A stretch of 64,000 nucleotides of DNA, from the NCBI GenBank assembly GCA_963666365.2, contig CAXXNF010000002.1:544001-608000 (forward strand), in the 5' to 3' direction. Below are positions 40,508-60,883 of this stretch, one piece after another. The notes under the pieces were generated by a model. The model worked only from the letters and a program-made list of their open reading frames with translations, was not told where the DNA came from and made no database searches. Position 1 is the stretch's first letter. The number at the start of each line of letters is the position of its first letter. A program made the translations under genes and the position numbers. This DNA comes from Syntrophales bacterium. GTDB lineage: Bacteria; Desulfobacterota; Syntrophia; Syntrophales; UBA2210.

Positions 40508-43500
40508 CTAAATCTTCGACACGTTAACCATGAACGCCTTGTACTCGGGACAGAACGTGTTCGCGTCACCGATAGAAGGTGTCAGGATATTGGCGCTATC
40601 CCCGCCGTCTTCGGGGAACAGCCACCCATAGTTGAAGGGCAGACCGACTTGATGCACCGTTTTGCCTTCGACCTGGAACGGACGAAACCGTTTGGTAACC
40701 ATAGCTACACAGTGAAGGAATCCTCGGGCTGAGGATACCTTTACCCGTTCACCGTTCCTGATTCCCTTTTCTTGCGCAAGTACGTCGCCGATTTCGACAT
40801 AAGCTTCAGGCTGCATCTCCAGGAGCCATGCCTGCCATCGCGTCAGCGCGCCCGAACACCAATGTTCCGTGCAGGAGTAAGTAGTACAGACATAGGGAAA
40901 CTGATCACTTGCACTGGCCGTTTTGTCCATGTCGGTGTCGAAGACATGAAGCGCTGGATTATTTAACTGGCTTGAAAGGGGATTTTTGCTCAGAGGACTT
41001 TCATAGGGTTCATAGTGCTCTGAGAAAGGTCCTTCCGCCATGCCTGGACCGAAAAGTGATCCTACGCCGTCAGGTTTCATGATAAAGGGGTATTTCCCAT
41101 TTTTTTGATCGGCCATAGGTGCCCAGCCGCCGTCGGGCACATCGCCCACCCATCGTTCGCCTGTCCATTCCAGCAGTTTTCTCTTTGGATTGTAAGGTTT
41201 GCCATATATGTCACAGGATGCGCGATTATACAAGATGCGCCTGTTGACGGGCCATGCCCATGCCCATTCGGGGTAAAGGCCGAGACCTGTCGGATCGTCT
41301 TTCCCGCGCTTGATCATCTTATTTTCGCCGTCGGCTGTGAAACTTCCCGCCATAAGCCAGTTTCCGCTGCATGTCGAACCATCGTCCTGCAGCATGCCGA
41401 AAGTGGGAACCTGCTGCCCCTTCCTGAAGACTTTCCCGTCGATGACTGTGTCCCTGAGGAAAAAGCCGTTGATCTGTTTCGCTGCCTTTAACGCTGAGAA
41501 GGAACCGTTCCTGTGAGTATAATCGGACTTGAATTTGAGGATGGGTTCGGGGTTTACGCCGCCTTCCCTGGCATAAAGCGCTTTAACGGCATCGATGATT
41601 TTAATGAACATCTCGCCTACGGGAATTGCATCACCCGGGGCTGCAGCAGCTTGATATTTCCACTGAACCCATCTGCCGCTGTTCGTCTGACTGCCTTCCT
41701 TTTCCATTGTGGCGGACGCAGGAAGGAGGAAACACTCCGTTTTGACTTTTTGGGGATCAACACCGGGTCCCTTCCAGAAAGAACAGGTTTCATTGTCGAA
41801 AATATTGGCGCTTACCAGCCAGTCCAGTTTTTCCAATGCCTTTCTCACTTTGCCTGCATTGGGTGAACTGACGGCAGGGTCCGTGCCTACTGAGAACAGT
41901 CCCTTTACCGAGCCTTTGTACATTGCATCGAAAAGGTGCATGAGGGAATAGGGTATTCCATCGTCAAGTTTCGGCATCCAGGAATAACCGAATTCGTTCT
42001 CCGGCGTTGCCTTGTCGTCGAAGAGCGACTTGAGGAAGCTCACGTAAAACTTGGGATAGTTTCGGTAGTAATTCGGTGATTGCGGATCATTCGTTACCGG
42101 GGTGTACTTCGTGAGATACTTCTCGAGCGTATCGAGGGATGCCACAGGCATTTTCAGATAGCCCGGCAGATTGCCGTACAGGATGCAGTGGTCGGTCGAG
42201 CCCTGAACGTTCGGTTCGCCGCGAAGAGCATTAACCCCGCCGCCGCAGATACCGATATTGCCGAGCAGCAGTTGAATCATGGCCATGGTGCGTATATTCT
42301 GCGTACCCGTGGAATGATGTGTCCAGCCCAGAGCGTAGCAGATCGTGCCTGCCCTGTCGCCGACACCGGTGCTTGTGTAGTCCGTATAGACTTTCATCAG
42401 GTCTTCTTTGGAAACACCGGTGATGCTGGATGCTTTATCCAGTGTATAACGGGAATAATGTTTTTTCAAAAGCTGGAACACGCATCGCGGATGGGTCAAA
42501 GAGGAATCCTTCTTGGGAATGCCGCTGAAGTCCTTTTCGAATGTCCAGGTTTCCTTGTTGTACTTTTTCTTTTCCTTGTCGTATCCGGAAAAGAGACCGT
42601 CGTTGAAGCCGAATCCTTCCGACACGATAAAAGAAGCGTTGGTGTAGTTAAGGACATAATCCCTAAAGTATTTTTCATTGCTCAGAATGTAATTGATCAT
42701 CCCTCCCAGGAAGGCGATATCCGTTCCTGAGCGCAGGGGAACATGATAATCGCAGCGCGCCGATGTTCTGGTAAACCGGGGGTCCACATGGATAAGTCTT
42801 GTTCCGTTTTTTTCCTTTCCCCGGAGCATCCATTTAAAGGCGATGGGGTGATGTTCCGCCGCATTGCTGCCCATGATTAATATGCAATCGCTGTGCTGAA
42901 GATCAATCCAGTGGTTCGTCATGGAACCGCGTCCGAACGACTCTGCCAGAGCCGCTACAGTCGGACTGTGTCAGACCCTGGCCTGGTGATCGACATAGAC
43001 AAGTCCCATGGCACGCGAAATGATGCTCATCAGCCAGCATTCTTCGCTGTCAACGTTGGAACTTCCCAGATGACCGATCGCTTCAGTTCTGTTGACGATC
43101 TGGCCTTTGCTGTTAGTGGTGATGAAATTCTTATCCCGCGTGTCTTTCACAAGGCGGGCAATGCGGGAAAGCGCCCAGTCCCACTCTTTCTCTTCCCACC
43201 GGTCACTCATCGGCGCCCGGTAGAGCACTTTTGTAAGGCGGTATTTATTGGCCTCCGTGAGATCAAAAAATCCTGCTCCCTTTGCGCAGAGCGAACCCTC
43301 ATTGATGGGGTGATCGGGGTCGCCTTCGATATTGAATATCTTTCCGGTCACCTTGTCAACGCTGCAAATAAGACCACACCCCACAGCACAGTAACAGCAG
43401 ACAGTGGTAACCTGCTTGGCTGCTTTTACTCGGTTCATCTTATTGAGTTCGTTTGCATAGGCTCTTGTCGGTTTTAAATTAATTCCCAGGGAGGAAAGGG

Positions 43501-43558
43501 CGACACCCGATCCTACTGCGCCGGAAATCCTCAAAAATCCTCTTCGCGTAACATCCAT
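40508..43558 (-). CDS. fdnG: Formate dehydrogenase alpha subunit, selenocysteine-containing (UGA at 42973-42971)
   Basis: ORFs 42971-43558 and 40508-42922 join in frame as DHQARV-U-HSPTVAALAESFGRGSMTNHW; Tat signal TRRGFL; CCYCAVGC; RGEPNVQG. Confidence 0.95.
42937..42955 (-). promoter_or_regulatory. Candidate bacterial SECIS hairpin of fdnG
   Basis: GCGGCUCU-GGC-AGAGUCGU stem-loop starting 16 nt after the UGA. Confidence 0.7.
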
Positions 43559-56056: not shown

Positions 56057-57934
56057 TTACAGGAATATGACCGCCCACAGAATGAGAACGGCCAGCAGCA
56101 GGCCGACGATGAGGCTCGCCAGTCCGAATGCGGAGGCGGCAAGTTTTGTTGCTATTCCAGGATGTTCCCGCTTCAGATCGGCCAGTTTGCCTTCGGATAG
56201 AAGCCTCTCGTAGTGTTCCCGCTTATCTTCGTACAGTTCGTGAAGGGTGATTCTTCCCGTGAAGATGGTTCTGTCCATGGGGAATTTTTTCGGAATCAGG
56301 TGGGTATTGAAAAAATGCACCGTAAATATGAACAGCGCCGCCAGCAGCGCTTCCTCTGAATGCAGAAGGGCGGCCACATTCAGAACCCAGCCGGGGAACA
56401 GGTAGGAGGTCCATTCCGGGACCATGAGAAATATTCCTGACCCTCCTATGACCACCATGCCCCAGAAGACGGCGAGAAAGTCGAATTTCTCCCAGTAGGT
56501 CCATCGGTCAAATTTCGGCTGGTCCCCCCGGTTGAAAAACCATTTGAACATCCCCTTCATATCCTGCCAGTCTTTTAGATTGAAAAAGAGAGATTCCCTG
56601 CTGAACAGGCGTGTCAACCACCCGCTCCTTCCTTTACCGTTCTTTCTGAACAGGTAGCGGACAGAGCGCACCAGAATGTAGAAAAAGAGGGCAAAGAGGA
56701 GTAGCGCGGCAACTCGATGAAAGATGCCCGCCATATGCACGCCGCCCCATATGTCAATGAGAATTCTCGCCCAGGGAGCCTCGTGGTATTTCAGGGGAAA
56801 TCCCGTCGCTACAAGGGTCAAGAAGGATATCACCAGGATAATGTGGACAACAATGTCTTTTGTGGAAAAACGTTCAATTGATTGCAGACTTTCACTGTCG
56901 GACATGGGAAGGTGCGGTGTAATTCCCATTTTTTCCATATAGTGTTTGTCCCAGTAGGTTTTGCGCCACCAGAGGAAGGCGTGTATCCAGAAAAAGAGGA
57001 ATGTTGCCGCCAGAAGTCCGATCATGAAGACATTTGTCCAGTATAACGAGGGATAGCGCTTCCGGTTGCTGAAATCGGGGTGTGCCTGGTAGGCAACAAA
57101 GCGGGGATGGAAGCCGCTGTGGCACTTCCCGCAGTTTTCCACCAGGTTGCCGGGGTGAATCGATGATTCCGGGTTGTCTTTCGGAAGAATGTTGTGCGAT
57201 GTGTGGCAGTCGGCACATCCTGCAACCCGTGTCGGATTTCCGATGTCCTGGACTTTGCCGTGATACGTCCTTTTATAGGCGGCAACCGTCAAAGTGGAAA
57301 GATCGTTCCGAATCATCATTTCCGGGTCGTTGTGGCAGCGAATGCATGTCCGGGTGTAAAATTCCCGTGCCTCGGCGGGATATTCCTGCTGGGACGTATG
57401 ATACACATGGGTGCTGTGAAGTCCATGACAATCGGAGCAGGTTGCCGCATCTTCGTTTCCCTTCGCGACGGCCATGCCATGACCTGAATGGGCGTATTCA
57501 TCGTTGGAATGACACTCGGTGCATTGGTGGAGCGTTGCCGATTTAATGGATGCCTTTCGGGGCTGCACGGCGTGGATATTGCGATGACAGTCATAGCACT
57601 GAAAATCCTGATGCAGATAGTGATAATTGTGTAGGTATTCTTTCGCAATTTCGTTATGGCAGCTTCCGCAGGCCACAAGGGTGGATCGCGTCGTACCCGT
57701 CATGTGTCTCTCGATATCGGTGATATCGCTATGACAACTGACACATCCCTGGGCGCCGTGCACCGAGGCGGGGTAGGCGGTTCGATACAGGTAATCATCA
57801 TGACAGGAGAGGCAATTGACGGAAGTCGTCGCACCGGGATTGGTGTCACTGCGCTGTGTCTTCACTGAAGCAGAGGCCTGAGTGAAAATGCAGACCAGGA
57901 TGACTGCCACTGCAGTGATGAGGGAATAACGCAT
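56057..57934 (-). CDS. CbcL-like protein: 9-heme cytochrome c domain fused to an FdnI/HydC-type cytochrome b domain
   Basis: Nine CxxCH, signal peptide, C-terminal TM domain with FDRWTYWEKFDFLAVFWG and LHSEEALLA..FIFTVHFFN. Confidence 0.88.
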   Translation of the reverse strand: MRYSLITAVAVILVCIFTQASASVKTQRSDTNPGATTSVNCLSCHDDYLYRTAYPASVHGAQGCVSCHSDITDIERHMTGTTRSTLVACGSCHNEIAKEYLHNYHYLHQDFQCYDCHRNIHAVQPRKASIKSATLHQCTECHSNDEYAHSGHGMAVAKGNEDAATCSDCHGLHSTHVYHTSQQEYPAEAREFYTRTCIRCHNDPEMMIRNDLSTLTVAAYKRTYHGKVQDIGNPTRVAGCADCHTSHNILPKDNPESSIHPGNLVENCGKCHSGFHPRFVAYQAHPDFSNRKRYPSLYWTNVFMIGLLAATFLFFWIHAFLWWRKTYWDKHYMEKMGITPHLPMSDSESLQSIERFSTKDIVVHIILVISFLTLVATGFPLKYHEAPWARILIDIWGGVHMAGIFHRVAALLLFALFFYILVRSVRYLFRKNGKGRSGWLTRLFSRESLFFNLKDWQDMKGMFKWFFNRGDQPKFDRWTYWEKFDFLAVFWGMVVIGGSGIFLMVPEWTSYLFPGWVLNVAALLHSEEALLAALFIFTVHFFNTHLIPKKFPMDRTIFTGRITLHELYEDKREHYERLLSEGKLADLKREHPGIATKLAASAFGLASLIVGLLLAVLILWAVIFL

Positions 57935-57967
57935 CGGTCCTCCGATCGTCAAGGTTCCGCCGTTCAT

Positions 57968-58729
57968 CTATTTTATCCTTTTCTTGAAGGATCGCCAGTC
58001 GCTCATTCCACCAAACAGGCGCTGTATGTCCACCAGACCCCGTTCATAAAGGTAGCATGCGGCAAGAAAAGACCGGTGCCCCTGTTCATCCACCACAATT
58101 ATTTTCTTGTCCATGGGCAGTTTCCGGTAGGTGGCTTCGAGTTCATCGAGAGGACGGTTGATTGCGCCGGGGATGTGGTCTTTTTCGAAAAGATCCCTGG
58201 ACCGGATGTCAAGGATCAGGATGTCCTTCTTTTCGTTGATCCAGCGGTTCATCACTTTCGGTTTTATCGATTCGATTCCCACCCGGGGAATACGCGTTTC
58301 GGATTCAACGCCATACCCGCCTTCCTTCCAAGCGGGCAGGCCGCCGTCTAGGATATACACGTTTTGATAGCCAAGCTCACGGGCCTTACGGGCTGCGTGC
58401 ATACTTCGATGACACCCGATACTTGCACAGTAGATAATGAGCGGTTGGTCCTGATTTTGTATCATCTCGGGCGCCCTTTTTTCGAATTCCGGGCAGGGAA
58501 TACAAAGAGAACCTGGTATGCGGTGATCCCCGCATTCAATGGCACTCATGGTGTTGATGAAAAGGAGATCGTCTGTTGCCTGCATCATCCGGTGCGCTTC
58601 AATCGCCGTGATCAGCGGAGGTGTCTCCTCCGCGGCGATTGAAATGCCGGTTGCGGCGAACATGAAACACCACAGCGCCATAACCGCCCGCACGAGCACC
58701 CACTTATTTTTTACCGTCGGTGATTTCAT
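57968..58729 (-). CDS. Exported two-domain rhodanese
   Basis: RIPGS, IIYCASIGCHRS, LDGGLPAW; the second domain (HIPGA, VVDEQGHRS) lacks the active Cys. Start uncertain. Confidence 0.88.
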   Translation of the reverse strand: MKSPTVKNKWVLVRAVMALWCFMFAATGISIAAEETPPLITAIEAHRMMQATDDLLFINTMSAIECGDHRIPGSLCIPCPEFEKRAPEMIQNQDQPLIIYCASIGCHRSMHAARKARELGYQNVYILDGGLPAWKEGGYGVESETRIPRVGIESIKPKVMNRWINEKKDILILDIRSRDLFEKDHIPGAINRPLDELEATYRKLPMDKKIIVVDEQGHRSFLAACYLYERGLVDIQRLFGGMSDWRSFKKRIK

Positions 58730-60728
58730 CGGGTATGGGCACCTCTCTAAAGCCCCACTGGTACATCTGCGGTTTCGCATTCGGTTCCCTGGGGGTCGGG
58801 TAGTCTTCGACCAGGAAACGCCCGGGATTTGTAACCAGCATCTTCGTGAAAAAGGTGGATGTATCGGAATGACAGTCGTAACATCCTTCCGGTTTCCCCT
58901 TCGATCCGTAAGTCTTTCCTATATCGATGGGCACAATATTATGATGAACGGGAAAATTATGCGGATGAGCTGCGAGATGATCCTCATAGGTTGCCACGGC
59001 GCCGTCCTTCAGTTCGTAGATTTTGTCGGATACGAAGACCACGTTGCGGAACCCCATCTTTGTCAGCGCTTCGATCATCGTCTTGATCGTGTCATCCGTT
59101 GCGATGGTGGGGCGTGTGACCGCCTTGCCGGTGATATCCTTTACCTTCGCAAGAGTGGCGGTATTGAGACTCTCGTAAGCCTTTTTTACGTACTTGAGGA
59201 TGATCGGCCGGATTGCCATATTGTCCATCTTTTCACCGAACCACTGGGCAACTTTCGGAACAACGGGGATGTACTGTTCTCCGAGGCCGTTTCGCGCATC
59301 GTATCGGGTAATCCATGGTGCCCAGGGCTCCGGTGTAAGAATACCGAAATCGTCGCTCCAGGTGATGGTTTCCAGGGTACCCGCCGTGTACCAGACCTGC
59401 TTTCCCATCGACATGTCAAGCAGATATCCCGACATGGCCGGTTGTCTCGTAGAATGGCAGTTGGCACAGCTGATCAGATCGAAATGGAACATGGCGTCGG
59501 GGAATTTTTCTTTGTGAGTCTTCGTTGGATTTTTCGCCTCTTCCGGCATGTCCGGCCGCGTCGCCTGATATTTTCCTTCCAGATGGCACGCCGCACAGGT
59601 TTTCATCCCCACGCCGTCGAGATCATCACGCACGCTGCCCATCGGATGCCAGCCCTTTGCTATCTGATGTTCCAGGCGCTCTTTCTCGGTTGTTCCCACC
59701 AGGCTGTGACAGTCGGTGCATTGGAGCCCCGCCTTGTAATGGGCGTCATATTCCGGTTTGTGGACCCATCCGACTTTCTTCGCATCAGGTCCTTTGTGAC
59801 ATTGCAGACAACTTTTCGTTTCAACCGCCTTCGATATCACAGTGCCACGGAATCGGCCTTCCCTGGTAAAGATATTCCGATCATCCCAGTTGTAGGTGAC
59901 GGTCGGCCGTTCCGAAAAATTCCAGGTGCCCCTGAGAAAATCCTTTGATCCCGGGCCGGCGTCATTATCGGCATACGTGAAAATTGCGCCTTTGATTTTT
60001 CCGAGAACGGCGCCTGCCGTGGCGGCCCACCGGTAATTTCTCTTGTTGAGCTGCTGATTGCGGGCCCCGAAGCTGTACTCTTTCATGTGGCAGAGGAGGC
60101 AATCGGCTTCTACGACGCCGCTCTCCTTGAAATGACTCCTGCCGTCAGGGGTGAGATTTGACGTATAGTCTCCGTCAAGAGGATTTACGTTACGGCGCTC
60201 ACCTTCGATGAGATTCATGGAATAATCGGGGGCGCCGTCCCATTTTCTGCCGTATTCCATGGATGCGCCTCCGGGATGACACCATCCGCAGGAGGTTGAT
60301 TTTATTTTTTTTGCAGGATTTAATTTCCCGTAGCCACCGATCCAATCGTAGGCGGACAGGTCAATTTGCTTCGGATCATCGTTGTTTTTGCGGGCAACAC
60401 GGCCTGACCTGGTTGCAGGGGGTCACCACTTGCCGTACATGCCCGGCGATAACAGCCAGGGCTGCCTCGGGTTATACGTGTCGCTCATCTCCATGAAGCC
60501 CTGCTGGAAATGAAACCCCGAGGAAATAGTTGAGTAGGGATGACATCCGCCGCATGTCCTGCGAGGACTGTAGGGATCACCCTGATTCCTGTCCTGCGTG
60601 ATCTGTTCTCCCCGCTCGTTTTTCAATTTTACATCACGGTGAATTTCGGTTTTTGCGGATACTGAAGAATAGATAAAAACAATGGAAAAAACTGCGGCAG
60701 CTACTACAGACACCAACTTAGGTTTCAT
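58704..60728 (-). CDS. Octaheme cytochrome c with in-frame UGA at 60425-60423 (probable selenocysteine)
   Basis: ORFs 60423-60749 and 58704-60260 share a frame. The linker is open and reads GMYGKW-U-PPATRSG...CGWCHPGG. 674 aa, signal peptide, eight CxxCH, AGGAGG RBS. Confidence 0.85.
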
Positions 60729-60854
60729 GAAGGCCTCCTGTCGGCACATTCAAGTTTAATCATTGGAGTAAGTAACCACATGCATCGGTAAGGCATTGTC
60801 AGTAGCCTCCAGTATACTGATTTCATGAGTTAGGTCAACGAAAATGAAATAGAA

Positions 60855-60883
60855 AAAGGGAAAGGGAAAGGGAAAGGGAAAGG
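60855..60883. repeat. (GGGAAA)n hexamer tandem repeat in a terminator-like hairpin
   Basis: AAAGGGAAAGGGAAAGGGAAAGGGAAAGG. On the minus strand it forms the 3' arm and tail of AGGGATGGGCT-TC-AGCCTTTCCCT. Confidence 0.75.

Follow-up and report, generated by a model that had tools for sequence, protein, structure and literature searches.

An OTR-like octaheme cytochrome c with a very probable selenocysteine codon in a conserved three-gene module of a Syntrophales bacterium

A 64,000-nucleotide stretch of DNA from a Syntrophales bacterium (NCBI GenBank assembly GCA_963666365.2, contig CAXXNF010000002.1, positions 544,001 to 608,000 of the forward strand; hereinafter designated the window) carries two adjoining open reading frames (ORFs) that encode c-type heme motifs and are divided by a TGA codon, which raises the question whether a selenocysteine (Sec) residue joins them into one cytochrome and what such a residue would do there. 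On the sequence evidence we conclude that the two frames are one gene for an exported octaheme cytochrome c with Sec at position 102 (Sec102). We put at about 0.6 the probability that this Sec octaheme gene belongs to a three-gene module for quinol-linked chalcogen reduction, in which Sec102 acts as the nucleophile at heme 2.

The first frame opens at ATG 60728 and is terminated after 101 codons by the TGA at 60423-60425; the ORF listing places its start farther upstream, at ATG 60749, which gives 108 residues. Beyond the TGA, 54 codons are open and run into a 518-residue ORF at 58704-60260, the start of which becomes M157 of the joined protein. Translation of 58704-60728 with TGA read as Sec (U) yields 674 residues with U102 within SPGMYGKW-U-PPA and eight CxxCH motifs (CGGCH, CGWCH, CLLCH, CLQCH, CTDCH, CAACH, CANCH and CYDCH); coordinates and translation agree with the joined protein that a sequence-only reading of the locus had proposed. 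The 16 heme cysteines are the only cysteines of the protein, and a hydrophobic stretch at residues 5-23 is predicted from hydropathy to be its signal peptide. The suspicion of the same reading that annotation pipelines split the protein in two is borne out by the closest database proteins, fragments of 512-553 residues and 65-85 % identity that cover only the part after the UGA. Full-length, uninterrupted relatives exist as well, with 660-680 residues and ~50 % identity.

The case for Sec is mainly comparative, resting on a column of TGA or Cys, on the tree and on selection, with a candidate RNA element as secondary support. A homologue search with the joined protein finds TGA or Cys at the U102 column in part of the family. 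Four close loci (L001-L004, 69-85 % protein identity), from two Syntrophaceae, one Syntrophales and one Desulfomonilia metagenome-assembled genome, have an in-frame TGA in this column, with the flanking protein conserved on both sides. The nearest full-length relatives have Cys there, and P0030 and P0031 read GKW-C-PAA. A metagenome scan added 80 loci, and the column was counted in 64 distinct sequences including the window (74 rows before de-duplication): TGA occupies it in 13 and Cys in 9 (TGC in 8, TGT in 1), the others having Leu (20), Gln (10), Ser (9), Phe (1), Arg (1) or Met (1).

A maximum-likelihood tree of 53 full-length rows orders these states. Clade A (GKW-U-PP; nine rows, the window included) is all Sec, clade B (GKG-[C/U]) holds seven Cys, two Sec, one Phe and one Arg form with Cys and Sec forms interleaved, and clade C comprises 32 rows with Leu, Gln or Ser. 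The tree contains two separate Sec sub-clades with Cys sisters, and the branch dividing A+B from C has 99 % SH-aLRT support, so that Sec/Cys marks a sub-family, within which the two residues replace one another as they typically do among selenoproteins. Twelve columns separate the Sec/Cys from the non-Cys forms, none of them clearly informative. The ratio of nonsynonymous to synonymous substitution rates (dN/dS), given where dS was computable and unsaturated, is 0.02-0.21 for the 54 codons that follow the UGA, compared with 0.04-0.18 for the 60 preceding it; by this measure the 54 post-UGA codons are under purifying selection. Contigs from two runs of two studies, one of them possibly the source of the assembly, cross the UGA unchanged.

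The source genome also has the machinery to insert Sec. Its selA, selB and selD score 608, 361.5 and 382.8 bits against cut-offs of 268, 242 and 125, respectively, and a tRNA-Sec (tca) lies at C2:2153644-2153741; the Sec genes that the sequence-only reading had left to be located are thus present. TGA serves as an ordinary stop in this genome too, terminating 486 of 1287 long frames. Within the window, fdnG has a Sec codon, as that reading had stated; the residue is the canonical U196 in HQARVUHSPTV, and the gene listing splits fdnG into ORFs of 195 and 804 residues. From the 13 TGA and 9 Cys forms among the 64 distinct homologues, the selection on the post-UGA codons and the Sec machinery, the UGA at 60423-60425 is very probably a Sec codon, in line with the earlier proposal. 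As a separate observation, the selD gene (G000:C1:483557-484486, L015) carries one in-frame TGA, for which reason the selenophosphate synthetase SelD of this genome is probably a selenoprotein itself.

Downstream of the UGA, the TGA forms share a short hairpin that may serve as the selenocysteine insertion sequence (SECIS). The candidate, N3-GGC[CGUGNN]GCC-N3, spans +19 to +36 from the U of the UGA, its CGUGNN loop beginning 21 nucleotides after the UGA, and GGCCGUG...GCC is invariant in all 13 TGA forms. Across these 13 sequences 88.5 % of the cells are paired, compared with 28-65 % when the 3' arm is slid, and the pairing of 88.5 % was equalled in one of 500 shuffles; compensatory changes from C:G to U:A occur at two pairs in three sequences. 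At the Arg codon from which the loop takes its GU, 13/13 Sec forms have CGT, and five non-Sec forms that encode an identical G-R-V peptide have CGC. The conserved stem is short, with three invariant pairs, and we regard the hairpin as suggestive of a SECIS, not as proven. The hairpin GCAAC..GUUGC that the sequence-only reading had noted from the seventh nucleotide after the UGA is indeed present in the window, and with its inner stem it is the minimum-energy fold of the 48 nucleotides after the UGA (-8.4 kcal/mol), but it is not the conserved element. As a conserved SECIS it was rejected, with only 66 % of cells paired across the 13 TGA forms and no compensatory change.

To which family does the protein belong? 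An NCBIfam scan places no model near its cut-off (NrfB reaches 23.7 bits), and NF040886 (ExtKL), NF041027 (GSU2204) and TIGR04315 (OTR; curated cut-off 375 bits) do not match the protein at E<=0.01; Pfam returns generic multiheme families only. A PDB search with the single sequence gives NrfB alone, at E 0.03, and a PDB search with the family profile gives short heme stretches of the NrfA/OmcA type, including NrfA 8bcx (E 2.9e-6, residues 327-386), and neither an OTR nor a MccSep chain at E<=1. Since no OTR chain was found by these sequence searches, kinship with OTR is seen by fold and by profile-profile comparison only. An AlphaFold model built on a 60-sequence alignment has a pLDDT of 90.4 and a pTM of 0.89, the only internal low-confidence stretch being residues 104-107 (pLDDT <50), directly after Sec102. 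Foldseek against the PDB gives one significant match, the Shewanella OTR structure 1SP3 (E 2.6e-5; next best E 0.2), and VIA, which is independent of Foldseek, also ranks 1SP3 first (Z 11.2, next best 3.7), with a root-mean-square deviation of 4.6 A over 333 of 436 residues and model residues 26-670. When the family profile is aligned by hhalign with a set of 20 genuine TIGR04315 proteins drawn from the phylum, the probability is 98.5 % (local) to 99.7 % (global) and E is 3e-15 to 3e-24, with all eight heme motifs paired in order over 456-466 columns. By predicted fold and profile, the protein is a distant member of the OTR superfamily, in a separate, unnamed family below every NCBIfam cut-off.

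The comparison sequences come from other genomes because the OTR gene of the source genome is broken: at G000:C1:117305-118655 (L097, L098) it lies in two pieces that score 337.6 and 191.4 bits, contains TGA codons, an in-frame TAA and a frame change, and appears decayed. Selenium occurs in true OTRs too. Their GK...NNF[C/U]I column is C or U in 20/20 TIGR04315 proteins; 20 of 47 above-cut-off TIGR04315 matches in 301 genomes of the phylum have one in-frame TGA, and in all nine loci examined (L101, L103, L106, L107, L112 and L115-L118) it sits at NNF-U, before heme 2. TIGR04315 stands as a GenBank-annotated selenoprotein in the table of a 2026 review, which also names ExtKL and the GSU2204 family among cytochromes (PMC13188914).

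The catalytic heme of OTR is assigned to the N-terminal module in a preprint (bioRxiv 10.1101/2022.02.24.481543), and PMC13562315 describes it as lysine-ligated though attached via CxxCH. The segment that separates heme motifs 1 and 2 contains Sec102 and Lys114 in the window protein and GK...NNF[C/U] in OTR; hhalign pairs the heme-2 motif with that of OTR and, in a low-confidence stretch, Lys114 with the GK lysine. Lys114, which is invariant across the family (Table 1), is thus a candidate equivalent of the heme-ligating lysine of OTR. Outside the heme motifs seven His are conserved for eight hemes, and seven distal His plus an invariant Lys114 would fit an OTR-like, Lys-ligated heme 2.

The state of the Sec column varies together with the heme-2 motif. 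Forms with GKW-x keep a canonical CxxCH at heme 2, GKG-C and GKG-U forms have C-G-W-T-H with the second Cys lost, and GKG-G, -F and -R forms have a heme-2 motif with no Cys (AGNLH, PGWTH, SGWMH or GAWIH) and keep the His-PGGG; the C-G-W-T-H and Cys-less forms are L022-L026, L054, L056, L059, L063, L069, L083 and proteins P0005-P0026. Written as Sec column/Cys147/Cys150, the 108 rows comprise xCC 61, xxx 26, CCx 12, UCC 5, CCC 2 and UCx 2, with no Cxx or xCx row, and the xxx state has at least three independent origins in a FastTree tree. This pattern ties residue 102 functionally to the heme-2 site and fits a free nucleophile, a ligand or a covalent link alike, and the C-G-W-T-H sister clade may have an unusual single-thioether or split heme attachment.

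Table 1. Features of the locus in window coordinates
Feature	Position	Strand	Details
Octaheme cytochrome c coding sequence	58704..60728	minus	674 residues with TGA=U translation
In-frame UGA, very probably Sec102	60423..60425	minus	TGA in 13 and Cys in 9 of 64 distinct homologous sequences
Shine-Dalgarno AGGAGG	60734..60739	minus	5-nucleotide spacer to ATG 60728; read directly
Heme-2 motif CGWCH (C147-G-W-C150-H151)	60276..60290	minus	translated only with UGA read-through
Lys114	60387..60389	minus	K in 101/101 aligned sequences covering the column
Candidate SECIS core	60390..60407	minus	GGC/GCC stem plus up to 3 variable pairs, loop CGUGUU
First-noted hairpin GCAAC/GUUGC	60394..60416	minus	13-nucleotide loop; overlaps the conserved hairpin and partly excludes it
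Exported tandem rhodanese	57968..58780	minus	270-residue ORF; PF00581 twice, E 6.5e-30
CbcL-type fusion	56057..57967	minus	636 residues; signal anchor, nine CxxCH, ~six transmembrane helices
fdnG-type formate dehydrogenase alpha subunit	40508-43558	minus	1016 residues with UGA read through; Tat signal

The cytochrome gene, a tandem rhodanese gene and a gene for a CbcL-type fusion of a nine-heme c domain with a cytochrome b form, in this order, a conserved three-gene module. In a synteny survey of 73 family loci, which were not de-duplicated, 54 loci have 900 nucleotides of flank or more, and in 53 of them the rhodanese follows the cytochrome; 42 have 3 kb or more, and in 41 of these the c/b fusion follows in the same orientation, L037 alone having it on the opposite strand. 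The amidohydrolase and Lpd-like genes next to the module show no such conservation across the family loci.

In the fusion protein the nine CxxCH fall at residues 52-283 and hydrophobic segments at 308-326, 372-390, 415-433, 498-516, 531-549 and 618-636; its NCBIfam matches are weak (DmsE family 52.6 bits, ExtN/ExtO ~30 bits, FdnI, a cytochrome b, 23.9 bits). By analogy of architecture it is presumed to be a quinol oxidase. In the rhodanese, domain 1 has the loop Y-C118-A-S-I-G-C123-H-R-S, and in domain 2 the catalytic Cys is replaced by Asp; no ExtH model stands among the 18 NCBIfam families with matches at E<=0.01. Across the family, in rows that are related and were therefore given no statistical test, the domain-1 Cys is kept in 10/10 Sec, 8/8 Cys and 7/7 Gln rows and in three Ser rows, and it is lost in 16/16 Leu rows (FYGGN, FYSGL etc.; within L034-L072) and in two Ser rows, the first domain being missing or diverged in five further Ser rows. 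As listed, the rhodanese ORF shares 77 nucleotides (58704-58780) with the 3' end of the cytochrome gene; its likely start is M18 (MKSPTVKNKW...), with which ~26 nucleotides of overlap remain, suggesting translational coupling. On the other side of the cytochrome gene, a microsatellite-like array of ~4.3 GGGAAA units (60858-60883, plus strand) lies ~130 nucleotides upstream of its start in the 200-nucleotide intergenic region, and may be a variable promoter-region microsatellite.

How might these parts work together? We infer a periplasmic enzyme, fed by quinol, that would reduce a sulfur or selenium compound. The CbcL-type fusion would take electrons from menaquinol and pass them via its nine hemes to the octaheme enzyme, where heme 2, corresponding to the heme at which OTR performs catalysis, would be the active centre and would probably have the invariant Lys114 as a ligand. 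From a flexible loop, part of the stretch that lines the heme-2 site, Sec102 would act as a nucleophile and open a chalcogen-chalcogen bond, the substrate being polysulfide, sulfane sulfur, tetrathionate or selenite, and the rhodanese would deliver this substrate on its Cys118/Cys123 loop. The working principle would be that shown for MccSep, a Sec-containing multiheme polysulfide and selenite reductase in which Sec325 on a mobile DGUP loop works beside heme 2 (PMC13510729), reached here in an unrelated fold.

Several observations weigh against this picture. Non-Cys residues at the Sec column, which the sequence-only reading had named as evidence for a nonsense mutation, do occur in 42 of the 64 distinct homologues, so that Sec/Cys is dispensable for the family as a whole; they sit mainly in a separate clade, however, and the nearest full-length relatives keep Cys. 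In the hhalign alignment the catalytic Cys/Sec of OTR falls opposite the invariant Asp128, with GKWUPPA as a 7-residue insertion in a low-confidence stretch, which argues against homology between Sec102 and the OTR cysteine; to judge from the alignment, two separate recruitments of selenium seem to have taken place around one site, each at its own position. The coupling between column 102 and the heme-2 motif would also be expected if the whole catalytic site decays as one unit. As for the RNA, the window's own copy of the conserved hairpin is the weakest of the 13 (4/6 pairs), the 61 nucleotides that follow its UGA show no more stable folding than shuffled sequences (z +0.84), and Cys forms too retain GGCCGTGTCGCC, so that conservation of the hairpin may partly reflect the G-R-V-A peptide or a fossil SECIS.

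Were the UGA a true stop, the locus would encode a 101-residue monoheme protein and a separate 518-residue heptaheme protein, or a pseudogene. We consider this very improbable: public gene calls do yield proteins of 512-553 residues and the window's own hairpin is weak, but the stretch from the UGA to the internal ATG is under purifying selection and holds the heme-2 motif, TGA recurs in 13 distinct sequences of two sub-clades with Cys sisters, and both uninterrupted homologues of 660-680 residues and a complete Sec machinery exist. Scarcely credible is membership in the ExtKL/MccSep or the MmcA family, to which a Sec multiheme cytochrome with a rhodanese neighbour and a Pro after the Sec (WUP here, GUP in MccSep) might at first seem to belong. 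The separateness from ExtKL that the sequence-only reading had allowed for holds up, with no NF040886 match at E<=0.01, eight hemes and not five, and a Sec that is N-terminal and not in a C-terminal Ig-like domain. The likeness to the Methanosarcina MmcA family that this reading drew from the order of motifs finds no support: 1SP3 is the only significant structural match and the hhalign comparison fits TIGR04315, MmcA itself not having been compared directly. Among the Foldseek and VIA matches listed there is no chain titled MmcA, an absence that carries no weight against kinship.

Two further explanations accept the Sec residue and differ over its role or substrate. Sec102 might be part of the cofactor, as an axial ligand of heme 2 (His/Sec or Lys/Sec) or linked to the porphyrin, and serve to tune the heme. 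The sister clade with C-G-W-T-H replaces the second Cys exactly where the remote column is Cys/Sec, and there loss of the remote Cys goes with loss of Cys147, with no exception in 108 rows and at least three origins; only seven distal His are conserved for eight hemes; and His/Cys hemes are catalytic in MccSep, a Cys ligating heme 2 of MccSep and of TsdA. The window's own clade, however, keeps a canonical CGWCH and thus has no vacant attachment site, in clade C the heme-2 motif is canonical and the column is occupied by Leu, Gln or Ser, the invariant Lys114 is already an OTR-like ligand candidate, and the model predicts flexibility for the loop that follows Sec, so that we think a cofactor role unlikely. 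Its boldest form is more doubtful still: Sec102 would be joined to heme 2 as a selenolate ligand or through a seleno- or thio-ether, giving a new heme-selenium cofactor, with CxxTH plus the remote Cys/Sec as a split attachment site and molybdenum-free sulfur/selenium respiration for syntrophs. It is likewise unlikely, in our judgement, that the substrate is not a chalcogen compound (nitrite, hydroxylamine or a metal) or that the protein is a pure electron carrier, with a structural or regulatory rhodanese. OTR reduces nitrite and hydroxylamine besides tetrathionate (PMC13510729), many members have neither Cys/Sec nor the rhodanese Cys, all 16 Leu-form rows among them, and the family profile touches NrfA in the PDB. 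Sec/Cys forms, on the other hand, always keep the active-type rhodanese loop (18/18 rows), a selenol would have no obvious role in nitrite reduction, and the known Sec multiheme enzyme is a polysulfide and selenite reductase, its cluster encoding the rhodanese-like ExtH (PMC13510729).

Members of the family are frequent in the order to which the window belongs. Among 251 genomes sampled from the class, 69 have family members (E<=1e-60), all of them in the window's order or family; six family matches have exactly one in-frame TGA and no other stop, the position of this TGA having been inspected in the source genome only, which has a single copy of the gene. The family is not described in the literature covered on Sec and multiheme cytochromes and on rhodanese-multiheme modules of syntrophs, a coverage that leaves out most subscription journals. 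Experimental proof of Sec in a multiheme cytochrome dates only from 2026 and concerns the polysulfide reductase MccSep; the window protein would be a second scaffold structurally unrelated to it, with an OTR-like fold, a Sec probably placed beside the catalytic heme and a paired rhodanese. Judged by sequence, it is a third lineage of Sec-bearing multiheme cytochromes, OTR-like and with Sec at a position of its own. A Sec position that differs from that of true OTRs, in a fold unrelated to MccSep, suggests that selenium has been recruited convergently, and more than once, for chalcogen chemistry in the periplasm, and the conserved partners, a rhodanese and a presumed quinol oxidase, offer a testable hypothesis on the physiology of OTR-like proteins. 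If the enzyme does reduce sulfur or selenium compounds, obligate syntrophs would gain an electron outlet that is absent from current models.

Compared with OTR (Shewanella oneidensis 1SP3, TIGR04315), the window protein shares the predicted fold, the eight heme motifs in order, the periplasmic location and the presence of a Lys and a Cys/Sec between the first and second heme motifs; it differs in being ~240 residues longer and in having a rhodanese and a CbcL-type fusion as gene partners. CbcL of G. sulfurreducens is described in PMC9129911 as an inner-membrane menaquinol oxidase with nine c-hemes fused to a six-helix di-heme b domain. The 636-residue partner resembles CbcL (GSU0274) in architecture, with nine CxxCH and ~six hydrophobic helices, and differs in that CbcL serves extracellular electron transfer and not a dedicated periplasmic enzyme.

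Sud of Wolinella succinogenes is a periplasmic sulfur-carrier rhodanese, and like such carriers the window rhodanese has in domain 1 what appears to be an active-site-type Cys loop. As with Geobacter ExtH, judged by the title of reference 58 in PMC13510729, it is an exported rhodanese encoded beside a periplasmic sulfur/selenium reductase, here a putative one. It differs from both ExtH and Sud as a tandem with an inactive second domain.

The closest functional parallel is MccSep/ExtKL (GSU2937-2936, NF040886, PDB 9WT8-9WTC), for which NF040886 finds no match anywhere in the source genome (94 % complete). MccSep, of ~49 kDa, has five hemes, a His/Cys-ligated heme 2 and a C-terminal Ig-like domain with Sec325 (PMC13510729). 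Both are periplasmic multiheme c proteins with one UGA-Sec annotated as a stop, in both Sec and Cys alternate in the tree and Sec stands on a mobile loop (here a predicted one) followed by Pro, and the ext cluster too encodes a rhodanese-like protein, ExtH, as the title of reference 58 in PMC13510729 has it. The window protein, by contrast, has eight hemes and a predicted OTR fold, its Sec102 is close to the N-terminus, and all its Cys belong to heme motifs. Despite these differences, the analogy suggests that the window enzyme probably works like MccSep.

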